This document shows positions 31,969 to 62,037 of a DNA stretch of 64,000 nucleotides, in pieces; the stretch's first letter is position 1, and each line of letters starts with the position of its first letter. This DNA is from Eledone cirrhosa. Taxonomy: Eukaryota. The notes under the pieces are model-generated. The model was not told the DNA's origin. It worked only from the letters and a program-made list of their open reading frames with translations, and searched no databases. Location: contig OZ024744.1 in assembly GCA_964016885.1 (NCBI GenBank), positions 42,904,001 through 42,968,000 on the forward strand, given 5' to 3'. The translations under genes were made by a program, and so were the position numbers.

Positions 31969-32070
31969 ATATATAAAATTTGTTTCTCTCCGCTACCGCT
32001 GGAACAAAAGAATGACGTTGTCATCTACCACGTGGTGTTTTATGAAGCTGTTAACTTGTAAATAAACTAA

Positions 32071-33116
32071 ACCAGATAGAAAAATGCGTACAGCAAAAAA
32101 AAGTAATATTGTTGGAATATAAACCTTTAAAAATACAGGACAAGAAACTAAAATAAAACTTTAAAAGAATAGGACAAGAAACTAAGATAAAACTTTAAAA
32201 GAATAGGACAAGAAACTAAGATAAAACTTTAAAGAATTGGACAAGAAATAAAAAATTTTACAATAATATTAGTGGCAAAATTTTTTTATTCGTTTCCTGT
32301 GCTATGCCCCAGTATCTTCTTGATTAGTGCATAATAATTGTCATGCTCTCATTGTGCGTTGCCCCTGAGCGGTTGGTTCTGGTTGGGGTTGGTTGGCTGA
32401 GCAGTTCTGCTCCGTCAGAATGACCATTGCAAGAAGAATTGGCCGATGCAGGTGCAGGTCTCCTCCAAGAATGCACTTCTGATCCCGCAACACCAGACGA
32501 AGATGGAGAAGACGACCGGGACAAGATGTCGACTCTGACCACCGACTACGGCACCTCCCTCAACCACCGGTCCTCCCTCCCTCTGTCCCGTCATCCCTCC
32601 AGTCCTCCTGCTCCCCCTTCCTGTACCAGAAAGCTGTGGCACGCATTCATCTGGACTGTCGGAGTTGAAATCAAGGACAAGATGCAAGGAGAAGATGGAC
32701 GGGTTGGTCAACATCAAGGATGAACGGGACGACAAGACCGTCCGCTGCTGCTCAAGATCTGTGCTCATGGACCCATGGGCCCATGGGTCCATTCACATTA
32801 TGCATGACACATGAGGCGTGTCGCCGAATGATGAAATAGGGGTATGGTTATGGCCCAATTGGTGTTCAAACCAGGATCAAATGATCCCCCCTTTCTGACG
32901 ACGACCTCTGAATGTGGAACTCGATTTTTTACCAATAAAAATTTTGCCACTAATATTATTGTAAATTTTTTTATTTCTTGTCCAATTCTTTAAAGTTTTA
33001 TCTTAGTTTCTTGTCCTATTCTTTTAAAGTTTTATTTTAGTTTTTTGTCCTGTATTTTTAAAGGTTTATATTCCAACAATATTACTTTTTTTGCTGTACG
33101 CATTTTTCTATCTGGT
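32071..33116. repeat. Long inverted repeats (~215 and ~180 bp) enclosing a GC-rich core
   Basis: accagatagaaaaatgcgtacagc...agtggcaaaatttt (32071-32285) is the reverse complement of 32937-33116. The left arm has one extra ~33-bp subrepeat. Confidence 0.9.
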
Positions 33117-33914
33117 GTACTATTTTTTAAGGCAATGCAAGCAACAACTATCTAATAATTAAATGATCATAGTGAATTACTGACAAGTGATTGACATTTT
33201 AAAGTTCTTTTGAATATAATTGCAATCTAGTTGAGGCAACTGGCTTAATGACAAAGCTAGTAAATCATGAATGCATTTGAGATGATTAGTGCATAATAGT
33301 GAATTGGTGAAACTTGTGCATTTCAATGGTGTTACAACAATAGATGTAAGTAGTAATACTTTATCATTTTAACTTTTTAGAATGGACAAAAACCCATGCA
33401 AAGAAATGACTTTGACTGCAGTGATTCTCTCCAATTTACTTACAAAGCAAAACGTGGTCAAATACCTTATCATCTCTGATAAAATGCCCATTGAATCACT
33501 GAAAATCGGATGCATGGAATTCCTCATAAAATGCACCTATGAATCGGAAGCCATCATAGGGAGTTGTTCACACTGGAAGACCATCACTTCATTTGTGACT
33601 TCATCAGTTATCTCCACGATTATCTCAGACACCCAATGCCATTGATGAGAGGTGATCCAATGTGTGAGCATGTAACTAATCTTATAGAAGTTGTTATCGA
33701 CCACCTGGCTTTTAGTGACATTTGACTGCTTTGACTGATTTGACTGATAATGATGTATTTTTAAAAAGTATGTGTACATTCTTGTTACTATTTTAAGGCA
33801 ATGCAAGCAACAACTATTTAATAAAATTTAAATTTAAAAATGACCATTGTGCATTACTAGTATGATGACATTTTATTAAGTCACAAAATTAGTCAGTCAG
33901 CCATAGAACAAGGA

Positions 33915-35296
33915 TCAGGTGGCAAAAACATTGGCAAAAATTTGTGTCAATGTAAGATTTCCAACATTGTTTAAATGAATCATATTTGAAGTCAGATTTG
34001 TCAAATTTTGACCAATTTTCAATGTTTTGAAGATTGGGCAAGTTCAATTTTTGAATCATTTCTTCATGCAGTAATTAAACTTTTCCAAACGAGAATTTCT
34101 CTTGCCCAAGTCATTTTTTATTTTCAATTACACTTTGTGGGCGTGGAATGACACCACTGTAGAAAATGGGTGTACAGTGGGGTTTTTCCGCTATTTTCTG
34201 TAGCCTTGCAAAGAGACTCTTCCCCTGTTTTTCCGGTTTTGTGCCTCGAATGGGCACTTTGTCCTTAATTTACAAATAAATGATTAATAAAAAGTACTTG
34301 GGCAAAAATTATTGTATTACTTTGCACAGCTTTGTAGTGCCAACGGTGCGACGAGGATTCAGATCATTAGAGCCGACATGAACCACCAATACTTTCACAA
34401 AAGGACAACAGATAACAATGTTGGCGATTAACATTACCTGGCCCTGACGGGCCCCAGGTATACAAAATATCTAAGTATTTTTGTTGGTATGATAAGTAAA
34501 TACATTTGAATTAATATTTTTATACCTTCTGGTCATTCGATTTCGCCACATTTCTAATTATTGAATCACCCACAATATACTTGAATTGTGGGTGATTTTT
34601 ATTCAAAAGTGCACGGACGACCATTAAACAACGGCCATGGAGATTTGTACCATTCCCATTAAATCCTCGCCCCCAAATTGGATTAGGGGTGTCCCCGACC
34701 AATTGTTGCTACAAATATTCAATAAATGAGCTAGATTCAAATGGTTTTTCCCTCAAAAAACGTTTTTTTACCGTTTTTTACTGGTTTTTAATGGTAAAAA
34801 AACCGTTTGTAACTTTTTTTGTAAACTTTTTCAAGTCTGGTAAAAAACGGTTTTTTAACCGTTTATTACTGGTTTTTTAATGGTAAAAAAACCGTTTGCA
34901 ACCCTAGTCACATGTACATACAGTCCCCGTGTCACGAAGTTTTGATGCCAGTAGAGGATCATTTTCGAATTTCATTGACAACAGTACCACCATGAGATCA
35001 AACTGGATTGATTCCCATTTGAAATCTCTCTCTTTGCAGAAAGTTGACAATCTATCAAAAAATAGCATTGTAAACTTTTATCAAATATGTATGGGATATG
35101 TTTACTTAAATGGGTCTTTTTCTGCCAAAATGTGGCAGAGTTGGTCATTTCTTCCATAAAATAGGGTCTTGATGTACTTATAAGCATGTTCAACTGTGAT
35201 GAATGAACATTCCAATAAATTCAGTGGACTGTTTAATTTGCTCATATTGGATAAAAACTGATGCTGCTGTCTACGACCTTTATATAGGATTGTCAT
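33915..35296 (-). CDS. Spliced NADAR (YbiA/DUF1768-family) + SGNH-like fusion gene; last exon frameshifted
   Basis: Exons 35296-35106, 35051-34922, 34708-34526, 34470-34321 and 34263-33915; all GT-AG and frame-preserving. NADAR motifs: FLSNM, TVEHAYKYIK, WESIQFDLM, MKFENDPLL..KLRDTG, LVGDTPNPIWGRG, GTNLHGRCLMVVR. SGNH motifs: IVGDSIIRNV, CIPGA, VVHVGSNDL, FYSGVIPR, D..HLN. Confidence 0.8.
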
Positions 35297-35485
35297 GTTT
35301 CTCTGTATCTGCAATGTGGGTATACAAAATAAGAATTATGATATTAACTTTTATTTAAAATCCCAAAAAATGCTGTGCATGAAAACTTCAAAAAGTTGCT
35401 CATACTAATTTTGTAAAAGATTTCAAGTCAATAATCAGAATGATCTGGTATAATTTTTATGCAGATAAATGACTAATTAGTATAA

Positions 35486-35552
35486 AGGGCCATCCAGATA
35501 TCATGTGGACACCGCGAACCAAAAATGGTCACATGATATCTGGATGGCTCCT
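35486..35552. mobile_element. Tiny palindromic Harbinger/PIF-like MITE
   Basis: agggccatccagatatcatgtg ... cacatgatatctggatggctcct. A related element lies at 44248-44371. Confidence 0.55.
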
Positions 35553-36455
35553 AAGCATCCACTCCACATGGCGGGGACATGGGTCATCATCGTGGAGCAC
35601 TCACCTATTTTTAAAATATTAGACTATGATAAATGAATTTAGTTAAACATACAATTTGAAATATATTAGATAATATTTAGTAGGTGAGCATTAACAACTG
35701 AATCTAAATGGTGCAATTACACCATTTGCATTTAGTTGAAAATTACATTTTAATTAGACATGACAATAAATGTGACAAATGTTACACAATACAAAGCAAA
35801 TGTCAATTTTCACATGCAAGTTTTTTTGAGGTTTTTTTTGATTTTTTCACACACAGCATTTTTGTCAATTTTCACATGCAAACTTTTTGGGGGATTTTTT
35901 TCACGCGCGCCATTTTTTTTTGATTTTTCACATTAATTTTTTCGGGGGATTGATTACAAATTTTATGTGCATTTTTTACAATTTTTCGCATGTATATTAT
36001 TTGTTTGCTTATGATGTGGCTTGCTTGTTGCTTGTTTTGTTTCACCTGATTTGACTGTTCATATTTATTTTAAAAATCCACCCCCAAGTCCAAGTTGTGA
36101 CCAAGAAATTTAATAGTAAAGAATTGCCAGTAAAGATGTGTAACTCCATTAGACATACATATAAATGTTTATAATATAAAATGTTACATTTTGGCAGACA
36201 ACAGATACATTGGATAGACCTACTGCATACTTCGGAACTATCCTCTGACACTGTAGCTTGACAAATGTAACAAATTTCCTGTAGTACTACATATAAATGA
36301 AATATTGCTCATGTTACAAAACAACAGTTACATTGGACAGACCTACTGCATACTTCGGCACTGTCCTCTGACACAGTTGCTTGACAAATGAAACAAATTT
36401 TTCATATAGTAGTACAGATTTTTATACTCTATATTATTTTAATGTATAATAGAGT

Positions 36456-39400
36456 TCACTTGGATGTGTAGGAAAGAGCATTCTGGAGTGATATTGGACC
36501 TATAGTTTTTTTAAAAAAAAGTAAAACAATATTTGGCAATTTAGGTGGAAATTTGGGGTGCCTTTTGGTTATGCACGTGTCACTAATTTCATCCCATTTG
36601 TCACCATCTTTGTGAATTAAACAAGTGTAATGACCTCCTGATGTGGAACCTAATGTGTGAACAATTGCTGATTGAAGTTGGAAATTGGTACCAAAAAACT
36701 GCTGGCGTTTTGAACTGAAATTCAATAAATCACAATGTATTTGAGTTTCTTGACCACTGGTTATGAGGAATCGGTTGATTGATACTACAAGGTAGTGCAT
36801 TGTGGGTGGGAAATCTCTCCTGATGGTTGTTTTGTGCTCTGTATTGGTGGTGCAGGTGGGTGTCACATTGTTTTATTATGGTGTCATTTGATACAAGTAA
36901 AGTACGAAACTGTTGAGGGCCTTGAATAGGATGCAATGTCAAGTCTGTTTGAATTTCTGGTGTTTTGTGAGTTTCGAGTCCACATCCAGGTCTATGTGTG
37001 CAAGTACAAATTTGATCATTCAAAAGTGGGCATTCATTTTCATGACTTTTAGTGCATCTTAGTGTTTCATTCACTTGAAATTGGAATATTTGCTGTGCAT
37101 TTGGTGGAAAATGTGGGTAGATATTTTTCCAAAAATCATGGGCACATTGCTGAGCACCATCATTAAATCTCCCCCCAATTAATCTTCGCAGAATTGAAAC
37201 ATCCCGATCCCCTGGTGTGACAATATTTGCTATTTCCTGAACAACTGGACTGAGTAATTGGGTAGACAACAAAGTTTCCCAAAGTTTGGGCAATTGGGCA
37301 ATAGCTTGAAGTGTGGAATTGGCAAAACAGGCATTTTCCTTATTTTGTAGTCTAATCATGGGAGTGAGCATGGAAATTGTAGCTAATTTAGGTTTTTTGG
37401 TAGGAGGAGCATATTCAGAAGGGTTGTCCACATTCAACATTCGCCTTGATAGTTTTTTTGGCATGCAAGATTCAGAAGCCATGCATGGTGGTTTATTTCT
37501 ACATGGTCCAAGTGGAGGCAATTTTGTTGTAGAACGCAATTTGTTGTACTCTTCCCAAGCATATTTGTCACACATGATCAGGGTTCGTGGGTCAAAATCT
37601 ATCAAATAGACATTGCAGAGTTTCCTAGCTCGTGAAAGTGCAACATAGGCCATTCCATCTGCGAACACCAGAGGACCAAGATCAGCAATGACCCCATCAA
37701 CACTTATTCCCTGTGATTTATGGATGGTGATGGCATAGGCAAGGCATAGGGGGAACTGTTTTCGTGTCACATACACACCAGGAGAGATTTCATAGTCTGC
37801 AGTCACCTTTTCTATTGAAATGTCATTGCCTATCATGTGATCAAATTCCACAATGATTTGTCCCATTTTCCCATCTTTTCCATTGACCATGCTTTGCACT
37901 GTTCCCATGACACCATTACATAGCCCCTTCACCAAATTAATGTTTCGTCTCAGCATTACTCTGGCCCCAACTCCAACTTGCAATTCAGTCTCAAGTCCAG
38001 CAGTGTCTGATGCCTTTTTTGGTTTGGAAAATTTGTTTGACTTTGACTTTTTTTTACGACCTTTCTGGTGCATTCCTGAGTCCTCAGCAATAACTACAAC
38101 TGTACTGATGTTGGCATGCTTAAGCATTTCCTTGTTGAATTCATCTACAGATTCATTGACAGGCAAAATACAGACAAATGTTTGACTAGGTAATGTGCAA
38201 AGTTGCATTAGTTTCTCAGTTGCCTCTCTCATTGTTGCCCTGCGATCTAGGAATAGGCAATGTTCACTCAAAGTCTTGATGTCCATGTCTGTAGGTGATC
38301 CTATTCTTATTCGACGCAACATTTCAGAATAGTTTTCACTGTCATATTTTTGCCGTATGTTTATAGTGAGCTCATCATAGTCGAAAGATTTCCACAGTGA
38401 CTGCCCACTTATTCCCAGACCAGTCCTTTTAGCATCATATGCAGAAATACTGGAAAAGACTGTTTTTTCATTTACTGGTGGAAGTTGAAGTAGATCGCCA
38501 AAAACCAGAATATTTATTTTTCCAAAAGGGCTGGTCATTTGACTCTGGCACCCAAAAATCTCCTCTACGCGCCTATGGATAAATGCCAACATCAGATGAC
38601 TGACCATACTTATTTCATCGATAATTATCAGACGGACATCCTCTAGAGTGGATCGCAAAATTTTGAGTTCACCACTTTCTAATTCCCTATATGATGGTGA
38701 CTTTTCATGTTGGACTGGGAGTTTCAAGAGCCTGTGCAAAGTGGTCCCCTTGATTTGGAAAGCAGCCATACCAGTTGGTGCAGAAATGACTACTGGGGCC
38801 CCATTTCTCTTGCAACAAATTTGAGTAACTTTGTCAGAAATTATATCAATGAGAAAACTTTTTCCTGTACCTCCTACACCAGAGACAAAGTTTAGAAATT
38901 GTGGGCAATCATCACATCTGCACCTTGGTAGTGGTTTTTCCGAATTCCAATGCAATTCCTGTTTTTCAATTGCTGATACAATTAGATTGTATATGGATCT
39001 TTGATCTGTATTAAGCTGTGTTTCTTTTTGTCTGTAGAGCAGTTTCATCTACATCTCGAATTTGGGGAACATCAATACCAGCCTCATCTCTTTCCTCCTT
39101 CTCCCCCCTTCTATCCGTCCTTCTCCGACCTCTCCCTCCTTTTCACCCTCCTTCTCCAACCTCTTCCCCATCTCAACTGCATCAGTGATTTTTTTCCTCA
39201 CATTTTGAAAATTCACCATATCTGGCAAATTGTTTGCACACAGATGAAAGGACTCTTCAAATGTTTTGCAGCCCCCCAACAAATCTTTGTCCTCATCGCG
39301 CCAGGGTTTGAACAGCATTAGAAGATTGTGGTAATAACGTTCTTTTGTGTCATTTTTGAGCTGTATATTTGGTGCTTTAACTACCCGCTCTTTTACACTA

Positions 39401-42400
39401 TGAAAATACCCCTTGTCATTGAGCAATTTCATTTTTGTAGCCACATCTTTGTCAACAGGTTTTTTTTGTGTCCTCTCATATTTGCTGGCAACTTCATATA
39501 AGGAGGAATCTTCCAGGAATTTTGGCCGGTTTTGTAAAAAGTTTCCACCATGTTCTCGTAGAACAAGTCCATTGAGTCTTCACTCAGTTCATCGAGATCA
39601 TTTTGAGATTTCAATCTGCGGCCGCGCCTACCGGGAATGTCTGCACCTACCCAAATAACATGATCTGATGACCCGTAAAAATGATGCCCCAAAAGTTTGT
39701 CAGCAGCTTCATACCCTCCTGTATCCCTTTTCCCAAGCAATTGCAGTCCAGCACTTTTGTATTTCCCATATTTTGTTTTGGAATGATCCAGATTCGCCCA
39801 CACTCCCTCAGCCTCATTTTTTTCAGCCTTAGTCTGATAGCAGGTGACATATCTATTCAAAATCATACTATTCTCACCAATGTATTGCACATCTATATTT
39901 GCTTGCCAGTAAACATGGATTGTAGTCATTTATGTACTTTTCTGATTCTTTTCTTTCCAATTGGTACAGTTTTTTTGCCCCATTACCATTTTTTCGTGAT
40001 TTGATACTTTCAGAAACTGAGAAAAATTGAAATTGCCCCACTGCACGTGCAAAACCAAAACGGCATTTTTACTCAAATTTTTCCCTCTCCCCACTATTCT
40101 CCAGCATGCTTTGGCACAAGTATGAACCGTCTAACGAGATTTGCCAAGTTTGGGCTGGCCACAGGGGATGGTAGCCGGCAAGTAATGCAGCGTTCAATAA
40201 ATTGCTTGATTTTTTCTTTATGATCTTTGTCAAAAATTACACTGTCCCGAACCCAGGCTTTAAGGTGAATGTGAGGGGCACCACGTTGTTGATACTCGAG
40301 TCGCCAAAAGTAATGAATAATTTCCCCAAATGGGCCTTTTTTATTTAAAATTACATCATGAAAAACAGCACTAAAACGATGGTGAAAGTACTCACTGACA
40401 GCCACAACATCATTTGCACAGAGATTCCCTATCGGCCTTGTTTCAACATTTGCAGTGTCTTTATTGAGTTTTTCCAAAAATTCCCTCAAGCCTGGCCAAA
40501 AGTATTCAGCACATGAAAGAGTGATAAACAAATGGGCAGGACCGAATTTCTCATCTATGGCATTCAAGTCGGAGCACTTGCGTTCCCAAAATGGTTTTGT
40601 TCCACGAACATTCGCCATCATTATTGACAAACCACTTTCCAATTGTTCATCATTGGCTTCCAATCTTTTATAAAATTGAGCAAGTGTCAATTTTGAACTT
40701 TTGAGTGATTTCATTACGGCATAAATGCCAGAATCTAGTGCTCTTTTGTCAGCCTTGTCCAAATTGTAGAGAATGTACTGAATGTCTCTACGAAACCGGG
40801 GGTCCTCATGTCTGAGTCTGTTTCTGATGAACATGTATGGCTTTACTCTACCATGGGGTCTGTTCATGTGCATCATTCCAAATTTTCCTTTAGGGAATAA
40901 GTGGGGGAAGCACATCAGATCCAGGTTTGGATCATTGTCCGGAAGAAGAGTACCTTCAACTCGTTTCATGCGAAACATTTCAAGGTCCTTTTGATTTGGG
41001 AGTGCAGGCTTGATTTGCTGTACAGTATGGTGTTCATAGACTGTTTCAGCACCAGTTTGTGTGAGAATGTGTGGAAAATTGATGGAAACATTTTCACCAG
41101 TGCATGTAACAATGTCCTCTAAATTTGTGGTTCTGTCTATCAAAATGTCATTGTAAATGTCATTGTTGTTTTTCAGCCACTCCAAGGCATCAAAGACATT
41201 TTGCATATTCACTAGCGATAGCCAAATTGTGCCCTTTTTAGTTGGAAGACTATCAACAATTATTTCAAATGCATCATTTTGATTCGATGGAAGTTTTTTC
41301 ATTACATGATTGATTGTGTTTTCTACTGGTAGTGGCATGTGAGTTGCTATTCCTTTAATAGCAGCTACTAGATCTGATGGTGCACCTTTGAAACGATAGG
41401 GTGACAATTTAATGACATTGATGAAGCATTTGTCCATTTGGATCAAAATCTGCTCATACATGTTCAACTTTGACAACACATTTGGAATTTTGACCACTTC
41501 TAGGCCATTGATTGAAGCCAATGATGGTATCGACTTTATGACAAGACTATTTCTACATGTAGAGCAAATCGTACATGGTAGAGAGTAGTTTTGTTGAATG
41601 GTTTCCAGGAGATAGAGATTTGTCAAAGTCCTCCCAGACTTTGAGTTTAGCATCTAATTCTCGTTGTTTGCAAATGTCACAGGAGTTGATTTTCATTTTT
41701 TGAATCTCTTTATTAAAATGTTTGATAATGGATGCAAAATTGGCCCTGATTGAGGATTCTGAATGCAAGCTCTCATTTTCATTTTCCACTATCTCATTCA
41801 AACGGTTTAGCAGATTGTTGGACATGTTTTGGGGATTTACTAGATCATCAAACATTGACCAATTTCCTTCCAAGATTGAAATGTCATAGGAGTCTAGCCA
41901 GACACAGACTGATCTCACTTTGTACACACATCTCAGAAGTGTACGGATGCGAGGAGAGTGAGGAGCCATACTTCGAAACAGTTCAAGTCCATTTGTGCAG
42001 TCAGACTGTCCTATGCAATAGATGTTGTCCCTATGGAATCATTTACACTGCTCAAAGATTTCCATTTTTTTCCGAATTTGGGACACAGTCAAATCAGGTG
42101 AAAGTTAATGTATGGCCTTGTGCATTCGTTTAGCTAGCTTTAGTCGTGCAGTGGGATCTGGGAAATTTGATGGGGGACCAAATTTGCACAATCTAGCCAA
42201 AGTCAGAAGTTCTGTACATTTTCTGCCATCAAAATCTTCCTGGTCACTTTGCTCACCCCCCTCTTTTTGTGCACCTGTCTCACTTTGCTCACCTCCATCA
42301 GTTGGCTCATCTACCCCTCTTTGTGAACATTTCTCACTTGGCTCATCCCCCCCTCTTTGTGCACCTCCCTCACTTGGCTCATCTCCCCCTCTTTGTGCAC

Positions 42401-43690
42401 CTTTCTCACTTGGCTCATCCCCCCCCTCTTTGTGCACATTTCTCACTTTGCTCACCTCCCTCTCCTTGTGCACCTCCCTCACTTGGCTCATCTCCCCCTC
42501 TTTGTGCACCTTTCTCACTTGGCTCATCCCCCCCCTCTTTGTGCACCTTTCTCACTTTGCTCACCTCCCTCACTTTGCTCATCACCATCTTTACACCTGC
42601 CCTCATTTGTTGGACAGTCATCAATCAGAAATTTGTGGTTTTCAAGTTGTGTTAGAGGAAAATAATCAACTGTACTTTTGGGGAATAGAAAGTGTTCATT
42701 TGTGAAAGTATGGTAAAATATTTCCCCCCAGTATGCAGTCAACCCCTCCTTCTTAGCTAATTTGATGTGTGCATAAACTGAAGCCATTGTTTTTTTCAAT
42801 TCATTAAACATGAAATTTCGAATTCCCTGTGCTTCTCTGTAGATTTTGGAAACTTTTTCAAGGCCCTGTTTGAATTTCTTCCTATACTGTGCCCGACTTT
42901 TTGGTTTTTCTTTTTTCGAAGCCAAATATGATTTTGTGAATTTGTGTAACATGATTTCCCTTTGCATGCGAATGTCTTTAAATCGTTGAATTCGTTTTTT
43001 TCTGTACAAAAATTTGTGTTTTTGTTATATCAACCGTGCATTATTAAAATGATAATGTGAAAAATATCTGGCATCTTTTTCTTTTCCTTCTTCTCCTGTT
43101 CTCAATCTGTGTGCTTTTTGATACAATGCCTGTTGACTTTTGCCCTCATCGCCTGCTCTCACTCTGTGCTCTTTTTGATTCAATGCATGCTGATTTTTGC
43201 CCTCATCACCTGCCCTCAGTCTGCGCACTTTTGATACGATGCCTCCTGACTTTTGCCCTCATCGCCTCTTCTCAGTCTATATGCTTTTTGCCATGCCTTA
43301 TTTTTAAATTTTGCTTCGTCTGATTGTCTTTTTTCTCTTATTTCTGCAGCTTTCCGTTGTCTGTACTCCCTATTCCTAATTGCAGTTTTTCTCCGTTTTT
43401 CATTCTCTTTATCAATGTTTTGATCTTTGTCAGTCTCATTGAATTCAAATTCAGGTCCAGGATTTAATTCGACCGATTATGAGTAATGATAAGATTAACG
43501 CGCGCGTTCTATATTTCTGATTGGAAATAGGATAATTTCGTTTTTTGGATTTGTAAAAACTGGCATGAATGTGAATTTGATCAGTCCAATTGCCCGATTT
43601 TAGTGAAAAGTTTTGATTCGAAATGGAAATACTCCATTTCCGTGCCATGGAAAAAATGAATAAGCCGATCAAAAAGCCGCGAAACATCAT
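36456..43690 (-). pseudogene. Helitron RepHel: N-terminal repeats, HUH Rep, PIF1 helicase, C-terminal USP (C19)-like peptidase; multiple frameshifts
   Basis: Rep: FITLSCAE, RLEYQQRGAPHIH, WQANIDVQY...RYVTCYQTK. PIF1: GVGGTGKS, APTGMAA, IIDEISMV, FGDLLQLPPV, QFPLCLAYAITIHKSQG, YVALSR. USP: LQNKENACFANSTLQ, QQCAHDF, AIVHTLGSTSGGHYTC, WDEISD. Confidence 0.9.
42250..42580 (-). repeat. ~36-bp coding minisatellite (GGDEPSEKGAQR) in the RepHel N-terminus
   Basis: About nine units of ctctttgtgcacct...cacttggctcatc-cccc; poly-C length variation breaks the frame. A separate 57-bp repeat (RLRAGDEGK...) lies at ~43070-43290. Confidence 0.85.
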
Positions 43691-45041
43691 TTTTAATTAA
43701 GCGAAATTAGTGGATGCAAATCTCAGAAAATATTGTACACTATTCGCACCTATCGCACTATTCGCACCTATCGGTACAAAAATATAGCGCACTATTCGCA
43801 CCTATCGGTACAAAAAATCGCACGACTGTTAATAATACTAGAAGTGCAAACTATCTGTTGAATACCTGGTATATGAAGAGCAACCGATACGATCGGTCGG
43901 CGATCGGTCTTGAAGAAGAATGAAGAATGAAGTGAAATTTTGGTCTGGTTGTTGTCATGGGTGTTTCGCAGAGATGCCGGCACGAACAAAGGTGTCAGTG
44001 ACACAAAGTTGTTCGCTTGAACAAAGGTGTCCGACAAAGGTGTCAGTCAGACAGTGTCACAGTCGGTGCGACAAAGCGATCGATGCGATTAAAAAAGATT
44101 TAACTCACATGTTTACCTATATTTTCGCAAACTATTGATAGATTGGTACAAAAAATAGCTTTGATAATAAACATAAATTTTTAACGAAGTATTTAAAAAG
44201 CATTTTAGCAGTGAAAAGTGAAGTAATGTTTTACACTGACGCAAGTAGGGCCGTTCAGAAATGACGTAGTCAATTAGGAGGAGGGGATTCGGCGATTTGA
44301 CTACATTTGACTAACGTAATCACAATCACAAGAGTTCCGCCGAAAAAAATTCGTCATTTCTGGATGACCCCGTAGAGAGAGAGAGACTCGTAATTACCTC
44401 CCCTTGTTATCTCGGGCCGATTCTTCTCATAGATGCATCAAATGCACACAGCGTCACGCTTACTACTCACTCACTTGAACACAAGATTTATCAGCAAACT
44501 TTGATTATAAACTTTTTCCCGCTGGACCAAATTTCTAGATTTTTAAGCCGAAAGATGCGTAATGATCAACTGTTCATGCTCATATAAGTTTTATCTCAGT
44601 TAAATAAAGTAGAGCCGCGCTGCACTGTCGTAAACAGACGATTGCCAACGAAAACACGACCACAACAATATTACTAAACGGACTACCGTCCGTTTAGGAT
44701 ATTAATAATATTATAATATTATATTATTTGTATTCACTCACACACACACACACATACACACATACACACACATATATATATATATTAAACAATAACAAAA
44801 GGCCAGACTGGAAAGTATGCTTTAAAATTTTAATTCGGTGAAATCACTATACAGATTTTGATGGCCCAATTCTATCTTCCAAATATGATGCAAAATAGGA
44901 TGATCTTATAGGGCAACCTTGACAATTGAACAGTTCTTTTTTACAGGCAGTCCCTGAATCGAATTTTCAATTTCCTATTCTCTTTTCCTTATCTTTCATA
45001 TGTTTGGGTTCAACGTAACCCTGTTATGTAATTCTGTCAAA

Positions 45042-45116
45042 GTTACCTGATGAGGTCGTCCTGGCTTGCATCATATTAGGATGATGGAGCTGGGCCATTG
45101 AAATATGTATAGTGAT
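45042..45116 (+). ncRNA. Type I hammerhead ribozyme with extended stem II
   Basis: gttac CUGAUGA ggtc...catcat attagg atgatg...ggccatt GAAA tatgta UA gtgat. Same core flanks as the 30118 motif; stem I contains GU pairs. Confidence 0.55.
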
Positions 45117-45877
45117 TGGGTACACAAGAGATGTAGTGGGATAGCAGGCAAACTAACAGGTAGGGAGAAATACGTATGCAGTAGATGTACAGGGAAATAT
45201 GACAGTAGAAGTCGCATTGATAGACACAGTTTTCAAATACAGGTGGGTGCTATAAAAGTGGTGGATAGCTTCCGGTATCTAGGTGATCAGATTAGCATGA
45301 GAGGGGGGGGGGGTTCCAAGGCCATAGTATCTAGAATAAGGACGGGTTGGAAGAAGTTTAGGGAGCTGCTTCCTCTGCTGACGAAGGGTTTCTCCCTGCG
45401 TATGAAAGGCCGGTTATATGATGCCTGTGTGAGGTGCGTGATGCTGCATGGTAGTGATACATGGGCAGCAACTGCAGAGGATCTGCGACGGCTGAAGAGA
45501 AATGAAGCAAGCCTGCTCCGCTGGATGTGTGATGTCAATGTACGTGAACGACCAAGCATAGATGAGTTGAGAAAGAAACTGGATATAAGAGGGATAAGTT
45601 GTGGTGTGCAGGAGAGAAGGCTGAGATGGTATGGACATGTGATGTGCATGGAGGATGACCGGTGGGTAAAGAAGTGCCAAGAAATGCCAGTAGAAGGAAG
45701 ACGCAGTAGAGGTAGACCATGAAAAACATGGGCAGAGGTGGTGAGAGCACACCTCAGATGGCTGAAGCTCACGCAGGAGATGACAAAGGACCGTGACAAG
45801 TGGAGAGATGCTGTGCTGAATAGGACCCGTCTCACCCTTACAAGCAGGGAAAATCAGGCGTAAAATGATGATGATGA
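45112..45877 (+). mobile_element. RTE LINE 3' fragment with (GAT)n tail
   Basis: WVHKRCSG, FRYLGD, MLHGSDTW, RLRWYGHV; same subfamily as 13160-15867. Confidence 0.9.
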
Positions 45878-46079
45878 TTTCACGAAATTGAAATTTACAG
45901 CATATCTTCCAGTTCGGCCTTCTGTTGTTTAATAAATACATTACTCTGTTCCTGCACCACCCACTTGATACCACATCTACGATGGATGACTTTGTTGAGT
46001 GCTTTTATTTATTTATTATATCATGGTTTACCAACCACAACCACCAGTTCTACTCATTGGTAATCTAAATAACTTAAAT

Positions 46080-47361: not shown

Positions 47362-49716
47362 TTAGGGAGAAGTGTTTAGACGGGGTCCGTATTTGTTAAT
47401 GAAGTAAGATTCCTTGCTGATGCGCTGGGTGTGGGTGGCATTATCTTTAAATTTGTAGAGGGGAAAGATTCTGAAGTTGGGATGATTTTGGGCGGCGCAG
47501 GTATCAATGTGTTCACTCAGTGGTATTTTCCTGTATTCCCGTATTTTAATTTGGGATCTATGGACAGTCATGCGTTGGCGGAGGCTGTTTTTGGTCTGGC
47601 CTATGTATTGTTCTCGACAACCTGAACAAGTTAATACATATATTAAATTTTCCGATGCACATGTGAAATTGTGTTTTACTATAAAACGTTGTCCATCTTT
47701 GAAATAGAATTCCGAACCCTCTATTAGGTTGATGCAAATGCCACAGTTGGGTCTATCGCATTTTTTTACTGTGGGTTTCGTTGTTGTGGTTGGCAGTACT
47801 TTGGCATGTGTCAAGATGTTTTTCATTGACTTGGATTGTCTTTTGCTCTTTATGATATCGTGTGTTCGTAGAATTTGGTTCATTCTATGGTCCTTTTTCA
47901 ATACAGGGATGTTCTGGAGGATGGTGTCAAAGGCCTCGTTGTTGAGGGGGTTGTGTGTGGAGATGTATGGAAGAGCTTTTAGTTTTGGTTGATTTACTTT
48001 AGGGTGTCTAAGGTCCTGGGTACTGAGTTTTAGGGCACGTTGGATTCCATTGTCAATTAGTGATGCAGGGTAGTCCCTGCCTATGAGTGTGTCCTTTAGT
48101 TCTTGTAGCCGTAAGTAGCAGATGTTTTTATTGGAGACTATAGTACAGATTCTCTTGGCTAAGTTGTAGGGAATATTAATTTTAACGTGTCTAGGGTGGC
48201 AAGAGTTGAAGGGGAGGTATTGCTTGGAGTCTGTGGGCTTGTAGTATATGTCTGTTTCTATTTTTTTGTTATGGATCTTAATGAGGATGTCGAGGAAGGG
48301 GAGTTGTTGATGGCTGTATTCCATCGTGAAGTTAATATTTGTGTTGAGCCCATTTATAAGGGTGTGAAATTCTTTAAGTTTTTCGATGTTTTCGTGCCAA
48401 AGGATGAAGCAGTCATCTAGATATCGCTTCCAGTTCCTTTCAATGTGTAAGTGGAGGGTGTTTCCAAATTTGTTTAGGACTTTAGTGTAGAGGGTGATTT
48501 CCAGGTATCCCATGACTAGGTTGGCATACGTAGGGGCTGTTTTCGTTCCCATAGCGGTCCCAGATTTCTGCCTGTAGGGTTTGTTATTGAAAACGAAGTA
48601 ATTGTTCTCCAAGATAAATTTGAGTCCCTCTATCACGAATTCTTTTTTGATGCGTTGTGGGAGTTCATTGTGGAAGTTATCCAGCCAGAATTGGATAGCT
48701 TCTATTCCTAGGTTGTGGGGGATGTTGGAGTATAGGTTGACTACATCGAACGTCACTAGTAGGGTTTGTTCAGAAAGTGGCATATTAGGGAGGTGATTGA
48801 GCATATGTAGGTCGTCCCTTATATAGCTTTTGATGTGCTTGAGGAAGGGTTTGAGAAGGGTATCAATGAAGTTGCTAAGACGGTGCGTTTCGCAAGCGGG
48901 GCCTGCTATTATAGGTCTTAATTTGAGATCATTGGGTGAGGGGACATTGATGACTATGTCTGTGGCTTCCTTGCATGCCTTACTGATTGATTCGCTTTTA
49001 TGTACTTTAGGGATACCGTAGAAAAGGCTGGATTTACTTGTGAAGTCTGTGATGAAGCTGAATTCCTTGTTAGTGAGTCCTTCTTTGTATTGGTTGATTA
49101 GAGTTTTTAGGTTTCTCATAATTTTCTGTTGATTGTAGTGTTCAGCCTTTTCGTAGTATGTTTCGTTTTCCAAAGTGGAGAGCGCTAAGTTGATATAGAA
49201 TTCTGTCTCCATTAGGACTACTGTACTCCCTTTATCAGCCTCTTTAATTGTAATGGTTCTGTCGGTTTTTAATCTATTTAATTCTTCCCATTCTTTCTTG
49301 TTGAGGTTTGGCTTGTGTTTTTGTCTGTGCAAGTGTTGGTAAGGGAAGTTTGTGATGTGTTCACAGAATTCGTCCAGGATTTTATTTCTACCTTTTGAAG
49401 GGGTGTAATTGCTTCTATTTCTGGCTAATGATTCATCCTCATTGTACTGGTCGAATAGTTGTTCACTAAGTCGTAACTTTCTACAGAAGTCTGTGATGTC
49501 TTCCTTCATTTCATAGTAGTTAGGACGTAGTGGGGTCGGTGTGAATTTAAGACCTTTGGAGAGTAAGTTGATAAGGTTGGGTGTTGGTTCTGCACTAGTA
49601 AGATTGATAATTTTTATTACTATCGGTTTCTCCTCCCTGTCTTGTGTTATTTTGTTTGCCTGTATCTGTGTGCTGTGTCTAAAAAATGGTTGGGGTAGAG
49701 GGGTTGTCTGCTGATG
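47362..49716 (-). CDS. PLE family 1 reverse transcriptase + GIY-YIG endonuclease (ORF2), intact
   Basis: Frame open from 49716. Motifs INL...LLSKGLKFTPTP, EADKG, FYGIPKVHK, LRPII, FDVVNLYSNIP, GTAMG, RYLDD, LPFLD, CDRPNCGIC, NLIY..TCSGC..QYIGQT. Confidence 0.95.
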   Translation of the reverse strand, partial: HQQTTPLPQPFFRHSTQIQANKITQDREEKPIVIKIINLTSAEPTPNLINLLSKGLKFTPTPLRPNYYEMKEDITDFCRKLRLSEQLFDQYNEDESLARNRSNYTPSKGRNKILDEFCEHITNFPYQHLHRQKHKPNLNKKEWEELNRLKTDRTITIKEADKGSTVVLMETEFYINLALSTLENETYYEKAEHYNQQKIMRNLKTLINQYKEGLTNKEFSFITDFTSKSSLFYGIPKVHKSESISKACKEATDIVINVPSPNDLKLRPIIAGPACETHRLSNFIDTLLKPFLKHIKSYIRDDLHMLNHLPNMPLSEQTLLVTFDVVNLYSNIPHNLGIEAIQFWLDNFHNELPQRIKKEFVIEGLKFILENNYFVFNNKPYRQKSGTAMGTKTAPTYANLVMGYLEITLYTKVLNKFGNTLHLHIERNWKRYLDDCFILWHENIEKLKEFHTLINGLNTNINFTMEYSHQQLPFLDILIKIHNKKIETDIYYKPTDSKQYLPFNSCHPRHVKINIPYNLAKRICTIVSNKNICYLRLQELKDTLIGRDYPASLIDNGIQRALKLSTQDLRHPKVNQPKLKALPYISTHNPLNNEAFDTILQNIPVLKKDHRMNQILRTHDIIKSKRQSKSMKNILTHAKVLPTTTTKPTVKKCDRPNCGICINLIEGSEFYFKDGQRFIVKHNFTCASENLIYVLTCSGCREQYIGQTKNSLRQRMTVHRSQIKIREYRKIPLSEHIDTCAAQNHPNFRIFPLYKFKDNATHTQRISKESYFINKYGPRLNTSP

Positions 49717-50957
49717 TTAAGTGGTCTCCTGTGTTTGTTATATTCCTTGTTGTTGTAAAATGTGGTTCGGGTTGGTGGTTGTAGATTGAATGGGGTGTTC
49801 CTGTACTGCGAGTATGGGTGTGTGTTTCTATGTGCCATGTTGTATTGTGGTGTTATAAGTGGCCTACGTTGTTGGTTGTATCGTGTGGTGTGGGTTTGTT
49901 GTGTATTGTGGAAGTGAGAGTTGAGAAAATGGTAATTACCTTGCTGTCCCCTTGAGGCGGGGAAGTTGTTGCATCTATCATGGCGGTGGTATCTTTTCCC
50001 TATGTTTGACGATGAGGAATCCGCGTAGTAGTTGAGTGATTTGGTATGGTGTCTCCTTGAAGGGGGAAAGTTGTAAATGTCATTCTGAGGGAGATGATTT
50101 CTTGGGTTTTTGTTCCTTCTTATGGTAGCGAGGTTGGGAAGTTCATCTTCGGTGTGGTGCTTCCTTCTTCGTTTGTTTGAGGCTTGGGGGTTTGAGAAGT
50201 TGTTGTGCGGTTCAGTTATGGGTTTTCCTATTTTTATGAACGGGTTATTGGAGGTGTAATCCGTTTGAAAAGTCGATTCATAGTGTAGGAACCAAGCGGC
50301 ACTTTTTTCCCAGCGTTGAAGGGATTTCAGTTCTTCTCTGTTGCAGTCCCCTTTCCATAATTTGGAGATCTTCTCTACCTTGGGGCCTTCAGTTTTGTTG
50401 TTGATTTCCAGGAGGATCTCTTCATCGATGGTTTTGATTTTTTCCTCATTTGTCTGGGCCCTCAGTTTAAGAAGTTCAATTTCTGTCTTCATTTTTTCCA
50501 ATGCCATTCTTTCCCTAAGGTGTCTTTGAGGTTCGGGTTCATTTGGAATGGACTTTATTTGTAGTTTACGGGGGAGAGTTAGAGGGGTTGAGTTAAGCCA
50601 TTTTTCATATATCTCTGCTTTGTTGTGATTTTGTATCATCTTCCAGAATGAGAACTTTCTGTCTCTGAGGGATTTGTTCCATTTTGGAATTGTTCGAATT
50701 TTCATTTTGTGTGAATCAATCTCACATGGTTCTTCGTTGGTTTTTCCTGGGTTGGTAGTAGTGAACATAGTTTGGATAGTATCGCAAAGGTTTTGGAGTT
50801 TGTCGCCGATTTCGGAGGGTTTGTATCCGGTGGCGGTTTCCTTATTTGTGGAGTCAAGTTTGTCGACCAGCAAAGATAGGTTGGTGTTGATTTTCTTGAG
50901 TTCCTGTAGGATCTCTTCATTTGAGTTGATGAGGGTTGTATCCGTTTTTGTTGGCAT
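49647..50957 (-). CDS. PLE family 1 ORF1, predicted coiled-coil protein with an N/H/R-rich tail
   Basis: Uninterrupted frame (first ATG 50957, MPTKTDTT); heptad-like ERMALEKMKTEIELLKLRAQTNEEKIKTIDEEILLEI; overlaps ORF2 by 70 nt. Confidence 0.8.
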   Translation of the reverse strand: MPTKTDTTLINSNEEILQELKKINTNLSLLVDKLDSTNKETATGYKPSEIGDKLQNLCDTIQTMFTTTNPGKTNEEPCEIDSHKMKIRTIPKWNKSLRDRKFSFWKMIQNHNKAEIYEKWLNSTPLTLPRKLQIKSIPNEPEPQRHLRERMALEKMKTEIELLKLRAQTNEEKIKTIDEEILLEINNKTEGPKVEKISKLWKGDCNREELKSLQRWEKSAAWFLHYESTFQTDYTSNNPFIKIGKPITEPHNNFSNPQASNKRRRKHHTEDELPNLATIRRNKNPRNHLPQNDIYNFPPSRRHHTKSLNYYADSSSSNIGKRYHRHDRCNNFPASRGQQGNYHFLNSHFHNTQQTHTTRYNQQRRPLITPQYNMAHRNTHPYSQYRNTPFNLQPPTRTTFYNNKEYNKHRRPLNISRQPLYPNHFLDTAHRYRQTK

Positions 50958-51621
50958 TTTCTGTATCTCGTGTGAGGATATGATAGTTAAAAGAATAGAG
51001 GTGTAACACACAAGTTATTATATATTGGTAAACGGAATAGAAAATGCTGACAAATTGTTCACAGTTGAAAAATGGTTTAATTAGGAATAAAAGAGTATTA
51101 GTGATTGTATGGGTTAGTATTCAGTTGTGGTTTTAAGTTTTTAAGTTTTTACCGGTTGCGCATTTCTAAATGCTTTTCAAAAATAATTTTGAGATAGAGT
51201 GTCCGTGCTGTTTGCTCTGATCTGATTAGTTTTGGGAATTCTACCTGTTTTTATGTTTAAAAAATGGCTCCAGCGTTATTTTTGTGTTGCAAAAATGCTT
51301 GTGGTCAAAACAATTTTGATTGGTCGGTAGAGGTCATGTGAATGTAAAAAGTTGATTTTGCGCCAAGACTGTTTTTATGTTAAAATGTTAGAAAAGTGGC
51401 TCCAGCAAAAATTATTGGTCAAAACAATTTTGATTGGTCGGTAGAGGTCATGTGGATAAAAAATTGGTTTTGCGCCAAGATTGAGAAATGACTCTTTCAC
51501 AACAAATATGTGTGTGTGTGGGTGTGTGTGTGTGTGTGTGTGTGTGTAGTAGTAGTAGTAGTAAGGTGTTCGATGCTGCGACAATAGCCACCAGCGATGT
51601 GTGTCAAATGGCTATTAAGAT

Positions 51622-51671
<50 letters not shown>

Positions 51672-51800
51672 ACATACACACAGCAGAGTCATTCGAAGGT
51701 CAAAAGATATTTTTCAGCTTTTGTCTTATACGGAGAAGTGCGTGTGTGTGTGTGTATAAGTCTCTTTGTATGTTGATGTACGCGTGTGTATGTGTTTGTG

Positions 51801-51832
<32 letters not shown>

Positions 51833-52000
51833 AGTGTGGGTGGACCAGTATTTTTTTCCCCCCTGGTAAAATGGTGTACATTATTCGATTTTTTCAGTAA
51901 AATCGGTTCTCTTAATAGAACATCAACAATCTTAACAATAAAAGGTGTGAAATGATATTCACTATATATATATACACACACACACACACATATATATTTT

Positions 52001-52039
<39 letters not shown>

Positions 52040-52175
52040 CATATATATGCACATATATTTTTTTGTATTGCACCATAGAGCATGTGTGTTTACGTGTGTC
52101 ATTGTGTTTATATGTGGGTAGAGATGTGTGCTGATGTAGGTATGTATGTTGACGTGTGTATGTTGTGGGTTCGTC

Positions 52176-53330
52176 TTAGGGAGAAGTGTTTAGACGGGGT
52201 CCGTATTTGTTAATGAAGTAAGATTCCTTGCTGATGCGCTGGGTGTGGGTGGCATTATCTTTAAATTTGTAGAGGGGAAAGATTCTGAAGTTGGGATGAT
52301 TTTGGGCGGCGTAGGTATCAATGTGTTCACTCAGTGGTATTTTCCTGTATTCCCGTATTTTAATTTGGGATCTATGGACAGTCATGCGTTGGCGGAGGCT
52401 GTTTTTGTTCTGGCCTATGTATTGTTCTCGACAACCTGAACAAGTTAATACATATATTAAATTTTCCGATGCACATGTGAAATTGTGTTTTACTATAAAA
52501 CGTTGTCCATCTTTGAAATAGAATTCCGAACCCTCTATTAGGTTGATGCAAATGCCACAGTTGGGTCTATCGCATTTTTTTACTGTGGGTTTCGTTGTTG
52601 TGGTTGGCAGTACTTTGGCATGTGTCAAGATGTTTTTCATTGACTTGGATTGTCTTTTGCTCTTTATGATATCGTGTGTTCGTAGAATTTGGTTCATTCT
52701 ATGGTCCTTTTTCAATACAGGGATGTTCTGGAGGATGGTGTCAAAGGCCTCGTTGTTGAGGGGGTTGTGTGTGGAGATGTATGGAAGAGCTTTTAGTTTT
52801 GGTTGATTTACTTTAGGGTGTCTAAGGTCCTGGGTACTGAGTTTTAGGGCACGTTGGATTCCATTGTCAATTAGTGATGCAGGGTAGTCCCTGCCTATGA
52901 GTGTGTCCTTTAGTTCTTGTAGCCGTAAGTAGCAGATGTTTTTATTGGAGACTATAGTACAGATTCTCTTGGCTAAGTTGTAGGGAATATTAATTTTAGC
53001 GTGTCTAGGGTGGCAAGAGTTGAAGGGGAGGTATTGCTTGGAGTCTGTGGGCTTGTAGTATATGTCTGTTTCTATTTTTTTGTTATGGATCTTAATGAGG
53101 ATGTCGAGGAAGGGGAGTTGTTGATGGCTGTATTCCATCGTGAAGTTAATATTTGTGTTGAGCCCATTTATAAGGGTGTGAAATTCTTTAAGTTTTTCGA
53201 TGTTTTCGTGCCAAAGGATGAAGCAGTCATCTAGATATCGCTTCCAGTTCCTTTCAATGTGTAAGTGGAGGGTGTTTCCAAATTTGTTTAGGACTTTAGT
53301 GTAGAGGGTGATTTCCAGGTATCCCATGAC
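52176..53330 (-). pseudogene. 5'-truncated second copy of the PLE family 1 RT-EN
   Basis: Nearly identical to 47362-48516; begins at VMGYLE. Confidence 0.9.
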
Positions 53331-53980
53331 CTCTACCAGGTGATTTCCAGGTATCCCATGACCTCTTCCAGGTATCCACATGACCTCTACCGACCAATCA
53401 AAATTGTTTTGACCAATAATTTTTGCTGGAGCCACTTTTCTAACATTTTAACATAAAAACAGTCTTGGCGCAAAATCAACTTTTTACATTCACATGACCT
53501 CTACCGACCAATCAAAATTGTTTTGACCACAAGCATTTTTGCAACACAAAAATAACGCTGGAGCCATTTTTTTAACATAAAAACAGGTAGAATTCCCAAA
53601 ACTAATCAGATCAGAGCAAACAGCACGGACACTCTATCTCAAAATTATTTTTGAAAAGCATTTAGAAATGCGCAACCGGTAAAAACTTAAAAACTTAAAA
53701 CCACAACTGAATACTAACCCATACAATCACTAATACTCTTTTATTCCTAATTAAACCATTTTTCAACTGTGAACAATTTGTCAGCATTTTCTATTCCGTT
53801 TACCAATATATATATATATATATTGTTATACTTTGGGAGGGTCATGTTGCCAATAAGAAACACACGCACCAGTTGCTTTCACTTCAATTTAATTTAATAT
53901 ATATTTATAAATTTACAAATTTATAAATTTCTGGTTGGTTGGTTGGTTCCACAACCAGATAGTTGTTTATATATATATAT

Positions 53981-54025
53981 AGTCATAGTTCTTTCGTCAC
54001 ACACTCTGTGACCTCTTCAGTGACT
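53981..54025 (-). ncRNA. Minimal type I hammerhead ribozyme in the PLE-2 pLTR
   Basis: agtca CUGAAGA g gtcaca gagtg tgtgac GAAA gaac UA tgact. Confidence 0.75.
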
Positions 54026-54305
54026 GGGGATTTCTTTCTTCGTTTCTGTGCCTTTCCTTTCTTCTATCCTACGCCATTTTGTTTGTGTGTGGGTTGCGTG
54101 CTCAGTTTGCGCATGCGCCACATCCGGGTGTCTGTGTGTGTTTGTGTTCATTTTTCTATTTTTCTATTTATATTTGTTTGTTTATTTATTTATTTATTGT
54201 TGGTTGGTTGTTTGTTCTATGTGTGTGTGTGTTTTCATTTTGTCTTGTGTGTGTTTTTAATTGTAAGTTGTTTGTTCTATGTGTGTGTGTGTTTTCATTT
54301 TGTCC

Positions 54306-57300: not shown

Positions 57301-58109
57301 TGTCTGTGTGTCTGTTGTTGTTGGGATGTGTGTTGTATATGTGTGTGCGTATATTGTTGCTTTTGTTTTTGTTTTTGATGCTCCAGCGTAGTTTCGTAAA
57401 TGATTTTTCTATTTCTGACAGACAACTAATCATATTTACCTTCTTGAATGTCGCAAATTTGGGTGGCAGACGTAACACAGACATTTCATTATTATCTATT
57501 TTCGTGTTTCCATAAATGTTGGTATTTTCATTGTTGAACTCTTCAGATAATGAGGTGTCGGCCATGTTGATACGGTCAATTTTGTCGGGATATCTATTGG
57601 TATACTCTATAGTATCCCGATTTAGCTTTGCCTGTTTAAGCCACTTTAATTTTCTGTTAAAGTGCTTATTACATTCTTGAGTAATGTACTGTTCTTCGGG
57701 GCGTATAAGGCTTATAAATGTTAGTTTTTCTGCTGGTGTGGTGATTTTAGATATTTCATCTATTAGGTTACGCTTTAGTTTTTCTTGATGACTTAATTCT
57801 CTATAGATCTTCTTTTTTATGTTTAGAATTAAAGTTCGTTTTAGCCTATCTGCTTGTTTTTTGGTGAGTTGTAATCTTCTAACGTCGGTATTGATGGTGT
57901 TGGTGTAGATTCTAGAAGTGGTGCACAGTTTTATGAAGTGTAGTTGTCGAGATGTTATGGTTTTTCGTAGACAACAGAACATGGTGGTTTTCAGTATCTT
58001 GTTAGCCTGGCTAAGGCTTACGATATTTCGTTTCTGAATTTGTTTAGCAAGATTCTTTATCTGAAATCGTGTGTTGAAACCGATATTGTTATACTTTGGG
58101 AGGGTCATG
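54306..58109 (-). CDS. PLE family 2 RT + GIY-YIG polyprotein, frame broken in an (AAC)/(CA) low-complexity tract at ~57000-57350
   Basis: Upstream part MTLPKY...VLRLPPKFA...EIEKSFTKLRW. Downstream part PTDKSG, YGLRKDHK, TRPVCG, SMDVVSLYPSI, GAAIG, RYVDD, LPVLD, NVVY..RC...YIGETAR. Confidence 0.85.
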
Positions 58110-58243
58110 TTGCCAATAAGAAACACACGCACCAGTTGCTTTCACTTCAATTTAATTTAATATATATTTATAAATTTACAAATTTATAAATTTCTGGTTG
58201 GTTGGTTGGTTCCACAACCAGATAGTTGTTTATATATATATAT

Positions 58244-58288
58244 AGTCATAGTTCTTTCGTCACACACTCTGTGACCTCTTCAGTGACT
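58244..58288 (-). ncRNA. Minimal hammerhead ribozyme (second pLTR copy)
   Basis: Identical to 53981-54025. Confidence 0.75.
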
Positions 58289-58568
58289 GGGGATTTCTTT
58301 CTTCGTTTCTGTGCCTTTCCTTTCTTCTATCCTACGCCATTTTGTTTGTGTGTGGGTTGCGTGCTCAGTTTGCGCATGCGCCACATCCGGGTGTCTGTGT
58401 GTGTTTGTGTTCATTTTTCTATTTTTCTATTTATATTTGTTTGTTTATTTATTTATTTATTGTTGGTTGGTTGTTTGTTCTATGTGTGTGTGTGTTTTCA
58501 TTTTGTCTTGTGTGTGTTTTTAATTGTAAGTTGTTTGTTCTATGTGTGTGTGTGTTTTCATTTTGTCC

Positions 58569-61992: not shown

Positions 61993-62037
61993 AGTCACTG
62001 AAGAGGTCACAGAGTGTGTGACGAAAGAACTATGACT
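61993..62037 (+). ncRNA. Minimal hammerhead ribozyme (inverted pLTR copy)
   Basis: agtcactgaagaggtcacagagtgtgtgacgaaagaactatgact. Confidence 0.75.

Follow-up and report, generated by a model that had tools for sequence, protein, structure and literature searches.

The closest described relatives of the element reported here are the UCH-bearing Helitron-like elements of the HLE2 group catalogued in the HELIANO survey (PMC11417382). In that survey, DUF6570 is the marker of the HLE2 group, and the UCH domain (PF00443) is among 20 stably captured domains and is enriched in HLE2 subgroups c and d. The article and its preprint both count UCH among the domains "encoded in different ORFs", and accessory domains in general are described as often fragmented and perhaps not essential. 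In Helentrons in the strict sense (PMC4067079), the transposase is likewise of the HLE2 type and bears a fused domain after the helicase, in their case an AP endonuclease; these elements also have subterminal inverted repeats that include a hairpin, and internally deleted derivatives. A third point of comparison comes from Erven et al. (2022, PMC9741609), who demonstrated that Helitron VTD domains are active deubiquitinases, proposed that they give protection from proteasomal degradation, and suggested that different deubiquitinase classes can serve the same need and be exchanged for one another.

The 64,000-nucleotide stretch of Eledone cirrhosa DNA analysed here, hereafter the window, carries on its minus strand a PIF1 helicase followed in frame, within the same transposase ORF, by a ubiquitin-specific protease (USP, Pfam UCH) domain. 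Its domain content (DUF6570, Rep and PIF1 without an AP endonuclease) identifies the gene as an HLE2 Helitron-like transposase; the element is probably about 12.6 kb long (Table 1). DUF6570, Helitron_like_N, PIF1, a UCH domain at a conserved position and the lack of an AP endonuclease are all shared with the UCH-bearing HLE2 c and d elements of HELIANO, and a provisional placement in subgroup c or d follows from the UCH enrichment only. In contrast to the separate ORFs of the HELIANO description, the UCH domain lies inside the transposase ORF both in the window and in 41 of the 120 best long relatives. The first-pass annotation of this DNA had called a USP in this position unusual, with Helentrons as the comparison. 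This is not supported, because HELIANO already catalogues UCH in HLE2 and those 41 relatives share the architecture; precomputed PF00443 matches alone mark 27 of the 120, so that PIF1 plus UCH is largely a catalogued and common combination. No Exo_endo_phos match was found in the window ORFs, and two AP endonuclease queries run by tblastn against 32001-36456 gave no match, so the element does not belong to the Helentrons in the strict sense. It has a USP where Helentrons have the endonuclease, and its candidate terminal hairpin lies upstream of the ORF, unlike theirs (PMC4067079). With the VTD and OTU domains of other Helitrons it shares the principle of a cysteine deubiquitinase built into the ORF, but VTD has a different fold and belongs to endonuclease-bearing Helentrons, and VTD activity has been measured whereas that of the Helitron USP is predicted (PMC9741609). 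The available HELIANO text places OTU upstream of RepHel, whereas in the relatives described below it is C-terminal, and its sections on domains hold nothing on catalytic residues, on tandem dead and live pairs or on replacement by OTU or Ulp1 (PMC11417382). In the literature on Helitrons and deubiquitinases that was covered, with most subscription journals and Repbase Reports outside that coverage, we found neither a test of a Helitron USP nor an account of USP, OTU and Ulp1 exchange behind the helicase. UCH in HLE2 is therefore already known, and what we did not find described is the USP within the transposase ORF, the swap pattern and the backup isopeptidase.

Table 1. Coordinates of the features of the HLE2 element, numbered from the first letter of the window.
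Feature	Positions	Strand	Remarks
Candidate left end	44663..44697	-	10-bp-stem hairpin 44674-44697, then 13-bp inverted-repeat arm 44663-44675; upstream of ORF
Frameshifted 2A-like motif	43453..43498	-	hydrophobic run, then VELNPGP; likely transposase start
Degraded N-terminal transposase part	41622..43500	-	36/18-bp repeats 42244-42589; 57-bp repeats 43059-43290; indel 41628
DUF6570, HLE2 marker domain	41129..41533	-	E 6.6e-16
Rep (HUH) region	39049..41000	-	Helitron_like_N ~40262-40831; small indels 40123, 40065, 39907, 39529, 39102, 39025
PIF1-family helicase	37531..39048	-	PF05970, PF21530, PF13538
Predicted flexible linker, helicase to USP (low confidence)	37357..37530	-	aa 507-564; motif VI to Cys, 100 aa
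USP N-terminal half (Cys box, thumb helices, QQ box, first finger cysteines)	36863..37374	-	in frame with helicase
Catalytic Cys and oxyanion-hole Asn codons	37327..37344	-	Cys 37327-37329; Asn 37342-37344; aligned to USP12 Cys box via family profile
4-base tandem duplication causing frameshift	36855..36862	-	inside second finger CxxC; absent from same-species contigs
USP C-terminal half, up to transposase stop codon	36456..36854	-	UCH E 6e-7
Catalytic His, Ser and Asp codons	36579..36632	-	His 36630-36632; Ser 36582-36584 (third position); Asp 36579-36581 (fourth position)
3' region, no protein domain found	32115..36455	-	
Candidate right end	32095..32114	-	exact 13-bp partner arm 32102-32114, then T run on ORF strand

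The USP domain is spread over two overlapping reading frames. ORF 36730-39048(-) encodes PIF1 at aa 54-250 (E 9.5e-26) and the motif YVALSR at aa 468, after which the Cys box and the QQCAHDF box follow in frame; ORF 36456-36872(-) encodes LVVSINRF, the His box and WDEISD, the second half of the domain. Against Pfam UCH the C-terminal half scored 29.8 bits, above the cut-off of 23.9, and the N-terminal half 22.3 bits (E 1.1e-4), just below it because the domain is split. The fusion behind the helicase proposed in the first-pass annotation is thus borne out by UCH matches on both halves. A local family profile built from the tails of 16 relatives matched the N-terminal half at E 3e-21 (profile positions 8-126), the C-terminal half at E 4e-24 (169-281) and the whole domain, read through the break with an X, at E 3e-44; all 15 rows of the family alignment match UCH at E<=0.1.

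The catalytic Asn, Cys, His and Ser-Asp residues are all kept in the window. Retention of a Cys/His/Asp triad had been claimed before and holds, with the refinement that the canonical third catalytic position is occupied by Ser and the Asp is the fourth and more conserved position. Ser at the third position is rare among USPs, yet it is shared with the active enzymes USP16, USP30 and USP45, and the Asp that follows it is described as the more conserved residue in USPs (PMC10867860). The QQD box departs from the usual form in that a Cys replaces the Asp, and both this Cys and the third-position Ser also occur in relatives. The structural model of the window helicase ORF is poor (pLDDT 57) and was used for the linker and the thumb only; the helical thumb was modelled with a pLDDT of 57-76 per block, and the model of the split domain is a low-confidence, partial one.

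To describe the lesions in the window copy, four of seven same-species sequencing runs were compared over 34000-42200, three of them as contigs (two from one sample) and one as raw reads. The break near 36855 that the first-pass annotation had placed in the USP is indeed there, as a 4-base tandem duplication inside the second zinc-finger CxxC. One contig from each contig run covers it, and in all three the four bases are absent (depth 57/57, 64/64 and 12/12); the raw-read run has zero depth at the break. A 791-base contig that covers most of the USP differs from the window only by this 4-base gap and 11 other letters, and none of the ten differences inspected introduces a stop or affects a catalytic codon. 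Since the contigs lack the four bases and the relatives are continuous, we rejected programmed frameshifting at 36855. The earlier count of a single frameshift is accurate within the USP, but the rest of the transposase is broken at seven more places (Table 1). These eight contig-supported indels explain all five tblastn frame steps and both stop codons along the homologous path, which leave no continuous transposase ORF, and the window copy is therefore dead. Four of the eight indels have a length of 4-8 bases, which makes assembly error unlikely as the sole cause, although it could account for those of a single base. In other copies or alleles of the species the frame is predicted to be open; an intact copy is a prediction because the element is not covered from end to end by any one contig of the three contig runs and because the contigs differ from the window by 19 indels and 504 substitutions beyond those listed.

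The window transposase as a whole is collinear with residues 291-2139 of a 2140-aa protein (P0003), with Rep upstream of PIF1. The motif near its likely start is one that we take to be 2A-like, of the StopGo type; an intact ExNPGP lies near the N-terminus in 4 of the 120 best listed relatives and in 4 cluster members, and a literature search on 2A-like motifs in Helitrons turned up nothing relevant. Candidate ends flank the element. Only two GC hairpins with a short loop occur in the window, and the left hairpin is one of them; its adjacency is what recommends the end pair, since 239 of 4511 random 12-mers (about 5%) have an exact partner 3-15 kb away; a third copy of the 13-bp arm lies at 33073-33085. 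The hairpin's own arm was rejected as a terminal repeat for want of a partner. A stem-loop upstream of the left repeat is also the layout of HLE2-reverse elements in the available part of HELIANO (PMC11417382), although, in comparison with HLE2-reverse and FoHeli3-5 (PMC11417382, PMC5148889), the window ends are candidates taken from one copy. The ends of five contigs carrying relatives (L001-L005) showed no hairpin or comparable ends, and these contigs probably lack the element ends.

Within the 3' region, contig depth is high over 34000-34547 and 35250-35650, behind 34561, 35093 and 35671 the loose ends of contigs correspond to the 5' region (matched by eye), and one contig joint skips 34293-40337. 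These high-depth segments and joins to the 5' region suggest that internally deleted derivatives exist, as they do for Helentrons. Two other structures were seen in this part of the window. An inverted duplication at 32073-33117, with arms at 32096-32285 and 32937-33092 that are 94-99% complementary, includes the candidate right terminal repeat and has a perfect palindrome at 32767-32792 between its arms. A hairpin with a 19-bp stem occupies 35489-35548, where contig depth is about 420-480 (35370-35643) against about 30 nearby; this segment may represent a non-autonomous element, either inserted or derived.

Long proteins were searched with a query that included the USP, and the best 120 of the 423 matches are the relatives counted here. 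Relatives that carry a USP are favoured by such a query, and the count as well as the inferred ancestral state may be biased as a result. Tails behind helicase motif VI were classed with local profiles built from these same proteins, and their positions were confirmed with Pfam in 22 selected relatives, in which UCH was C-terminal in 10 of the 10 tested. The 41 relatives with a USP-like domain behind motif VI divide into 30 with one USP, six with two and five with a USP and an OTU. OTU-only tails are found in 57 (50 single, 6 double and 1 fragment), which brings the OTU total to 62 when the USP+OTU proteins are included, and Ulp1/C48 tails in a further seven (4 complete, 3 partial). The other 15 of the 120 lack a tail, and 13 of these 15 have 136 aa or fewer and look truncated. 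The spacing from motif VI to the catalytic Cys is 85-184 aa in the 32 relatives in which the Cys could be located, compared with 100 in the window. Among the named hosts of USP-bearing proteins are a sponge, an ant, a whitefly, a psyllid, a wasp and a bug. The N-terminal half of the USP alone, searched against longer proteins, gave 67 candidates and no relative, which is weak evidence; the wider query then found the family. A scan of viral contigs matched one stretch, with none confirmed, and revealed no viral carrier. Run against 1.84 billion representatives, the family profile returned 248 matches at E<=1e-30, not all of them transposon-borne; in 35 of the best 150, parts of a Helitron helicase belong to the same protein, and fragments or conventional USPs in repeats make up many of the rest. 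Three kinds of unusual protein were met along the way. P0004 is deposited as a protein of a Gammaproteobacteria MAG, yet it is a full HLE2 transposase with a USP and is probably eukaryotic DNA binned into the MAG. P0145, P0146 and P0147 have 6-10 tandem USP domains with intact triads in up to 3205 aa, and their origin could be an assembly or gene-model artefact. In the HLE2 protein at L065:958-9534, an AP endonuclease-like domain (aa 1598-1800) lies midway through the Rep region and not behind the helicase.

The pattern of catalytic residues in these tails bears on whether the domain is of any use to the element. Cys, His and Asp are intact in 17 of 20 full single USP domains at a mean identity of only about 22%, a count from which 12 partial rows, three of them dead by eye, were set aside. 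Where two USPs stand in tandem, the first lacks the Cys in five of six pairs and the second is intact in all five complete ones; where a USP is followed by an OTU, the USP is dead in five of five, with the Cys of the OTU retained. Where a single USP is dead, an N-terminal Ulp1-like or USP domain is present in all four relatives that are long enough to judge. Three of these (P0026, P0028 and P0099) show Ulp1-like motifs, with a Pfam match at E 4e-6 for P0026, a weak one for P0099 and the motif plus a local profile only for P0028; the fourth, P0211, has an N-terminal USP. Two more relatives with a dead USP, P0088 and P0044, are truncated. From their sequences, then, another intact-looking isopeptidase appears to accompany the USP wherever it is dead, a relationship for which we found no prior account. 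We therefore regard a passenger role, with the USP a fragment captured from a host and of no use to the element, as very unlikely: dead USPs do occur in several relatives, Helitrons capture genes readily, and HELIANO describes accessory domains as often fragmented and maybe non-essential (PMC11417382), but the triad persists at this low identity across sponge, insect and other hosts, the dead copies are paired with a second enzyme, and functionally similar folds have replaced the domain repeatedly. As a separate observation, P0243, P0192, P0032 and P0052 have an N-terminal Ulp1-like domain besides an intact USP, and in P0243 and P0192 the Ulp1-like domain and the USP stand together at the N-terminus.

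A helicase tree bears on the direction of these replacements. It comprises 97 rows, includes 29 of the 57 OTU-only proteins, leaves out 13 tail-less ones, uses 11 metagenome loci as the outgroup and carries two rows relabelled Ulp1-like by eye; it comes from a quick search with SH-aLRT support only and has several open deep forks. In the ingroup of 86 rows (SH-aLRT 98), the deepest branches bear the USP, and at least four tail changes are required. A single OTU clade was rejected (p-AU 4.6e-6) in a test chosen after the tree had been seen. The USP is thus likely to be the ancestral tail of the clade, replaced at least twice by OTU and also by Ulp1, and where a dead USP remains ahead of an OTU, the direction of at least one swap follows without recourse to a root. 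The distances between helicases are correlated with those between USPs (rho 0.70, n=35, 0/2000 permutations). We infer that the USP was captured once, early in the clade, was inherited together with the helicase and afterwards underwent duplication or inactivation, or gave way to OTU and Ulp1-type domains. The outgroup HLE2 loci L008, L009, L012 and L013 have no such tail, and together with the 15 tail-less relatives they indicate that the activity is not needed by all Helitrons.

Comparison with solved structures places the domain among ubiquitin-specific enzymes. The best solved matches of the family profile are USP12 (E 9e-30) and USP46 (E 6e-29). P0004, whose USP is the closest to that of the window among the relatives listed (26% identical), yielded a tail model with a pLDDT of 92, a thumb-palm-fingers fold with a complete finger domain and a TM of 0.81 to USP12 (5k16). 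The family shares with USP12 and USP46 (PDB 5k16, 5cvn) this fold, the Cys and His boxes, two CxxC finger motifs and the Asn five residues before the Cys. Unlike cellular USPs, the Helitron USP is compact (about 290 aa) and transposase-tethered, and it is only about 20% identical to them. Orthology to one particular cellular USP is not supported at this identity of the solved matches, and many of the top representatives in the profile search rank high through summed, repeated USP domains.

The fold also bears on whether the substrate is ubiquitin. That the USP cleaves SUMO or another ubiquitin-like modifier, or processes a transposase polyprotein, is in our estimation rather improbable, since the best sequence and fold matches are the ubiquitin-specific USP12, USP46, USP2 and USP14, the fingers, which bind a fold the size of ubiquitin, are complete, and OTU is the commoner replacement. 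The case for it draws on the Ulp1/C48 tails at the same position in one clade, on a weak Peptidase_C98 match in one family member and on a precedent, USPL1, which is reportedly a SUMO protease with a USP fold. Subunit cleavage has in addition been proposed for the Helentron OTU (PMC4067079).

Our preferred reading, to which we give somewhat better than even credence, is that this stretch is the C-terminal USP-family domain of an HLE2 transposase and that in intact copies it would serve as a tethered deubiquitinase, protecting the transposase from ubiquitin-dependent removal. The domain is predicted from its conserved residues to be an active cysteine isopeptidase that would act in cis on its flexible linker. 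Its substrate would be the transposase itself, for example as a covalent DNA adduct, or proteins at the nick, and this is the most conjectural step. Proteasomal clearance would thereby be delayed until strand transfer is complete. Helraiser has been modelled with a 5'-phosphotyrosine DNA adduct (PMC4778049), and in hosts, DNA-protein crosslinks are cleared through SUMOylation, ubiquitylation by RNF4 and the proteasome (PMC8441304), a route of which USP, OTU and Ulp1, when fused to the transposase, would each oppose one step. Action in cis is favoured by the retention of the fusion across the clade, and the same retention counts against the idea that an active deubiquitinase works on host chromatin or defence proteins (H2A ubiquitin, replication-fork or immune factors) to enable expression or insertion. 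We consider that idea unlikely. Thomas et al. (2014, PMC4067079) did raise chromatin modification as a role for the Helentron OTU, stand-alone compact USPs of the same fold exist in giant viruses (TM 0.75-0.76 to the P0004 tail model, Pithovirus 0.76), and the USP is found at the N-terminus instead in P0211 and P0243, so that a position beside the helicase is not obligatory; but no chromatin-reader domain was seen beside the USP with Pfam in the relatives tested.

A bolder extension of protection in cis, which we put forward tentatively and regard as doubtful in its full form, is that the animal HLE2 clade has an obligatory, interchangeable isopeptidase slot, with the USP ancestral, OTU acquired at least twice, Ulp1 once and a backup present when the USP is dead, which would strip ubiquitin or SUMO off the covalent adduct and so disarm SUMO-RNF4-proteasome crosslink repair. 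Three unrelated protease folds for ubiquitin-like tags alternate at one site of one transposase, and this alternation suggests that rolling-circle transposition is held in check by host ubiquitin and SUMO marking, against which the elements fight back. Should the proposal hold, it would name a host restriction pathway for Helitrons and offer a route to higher activity of Helitron tools such as Helraiser. The window copy alone adds little, and the comparative swap pattern matters more; the family also adds many compact USP candidates among its 248 cluster representatives.

The remainder of the window is occupied largely by other elements. Several Penelope-like retroelements (reverse transcriptase plus GIY-YIG), arranged in tandem and inverted, lie at 47362-62055, with open frames of 784, 921 and 683 aa. 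Many LINE-type fragments, including repeated reverse-transcriptase-like 3' ends, are present at 7259-29000 and 45102-45878, with endonuclease matches at 13219 and 18687 and a PHD finger at 28185. A TPR-repeat open frame at 5867-6436 (+) is probably an exon of a host gene.
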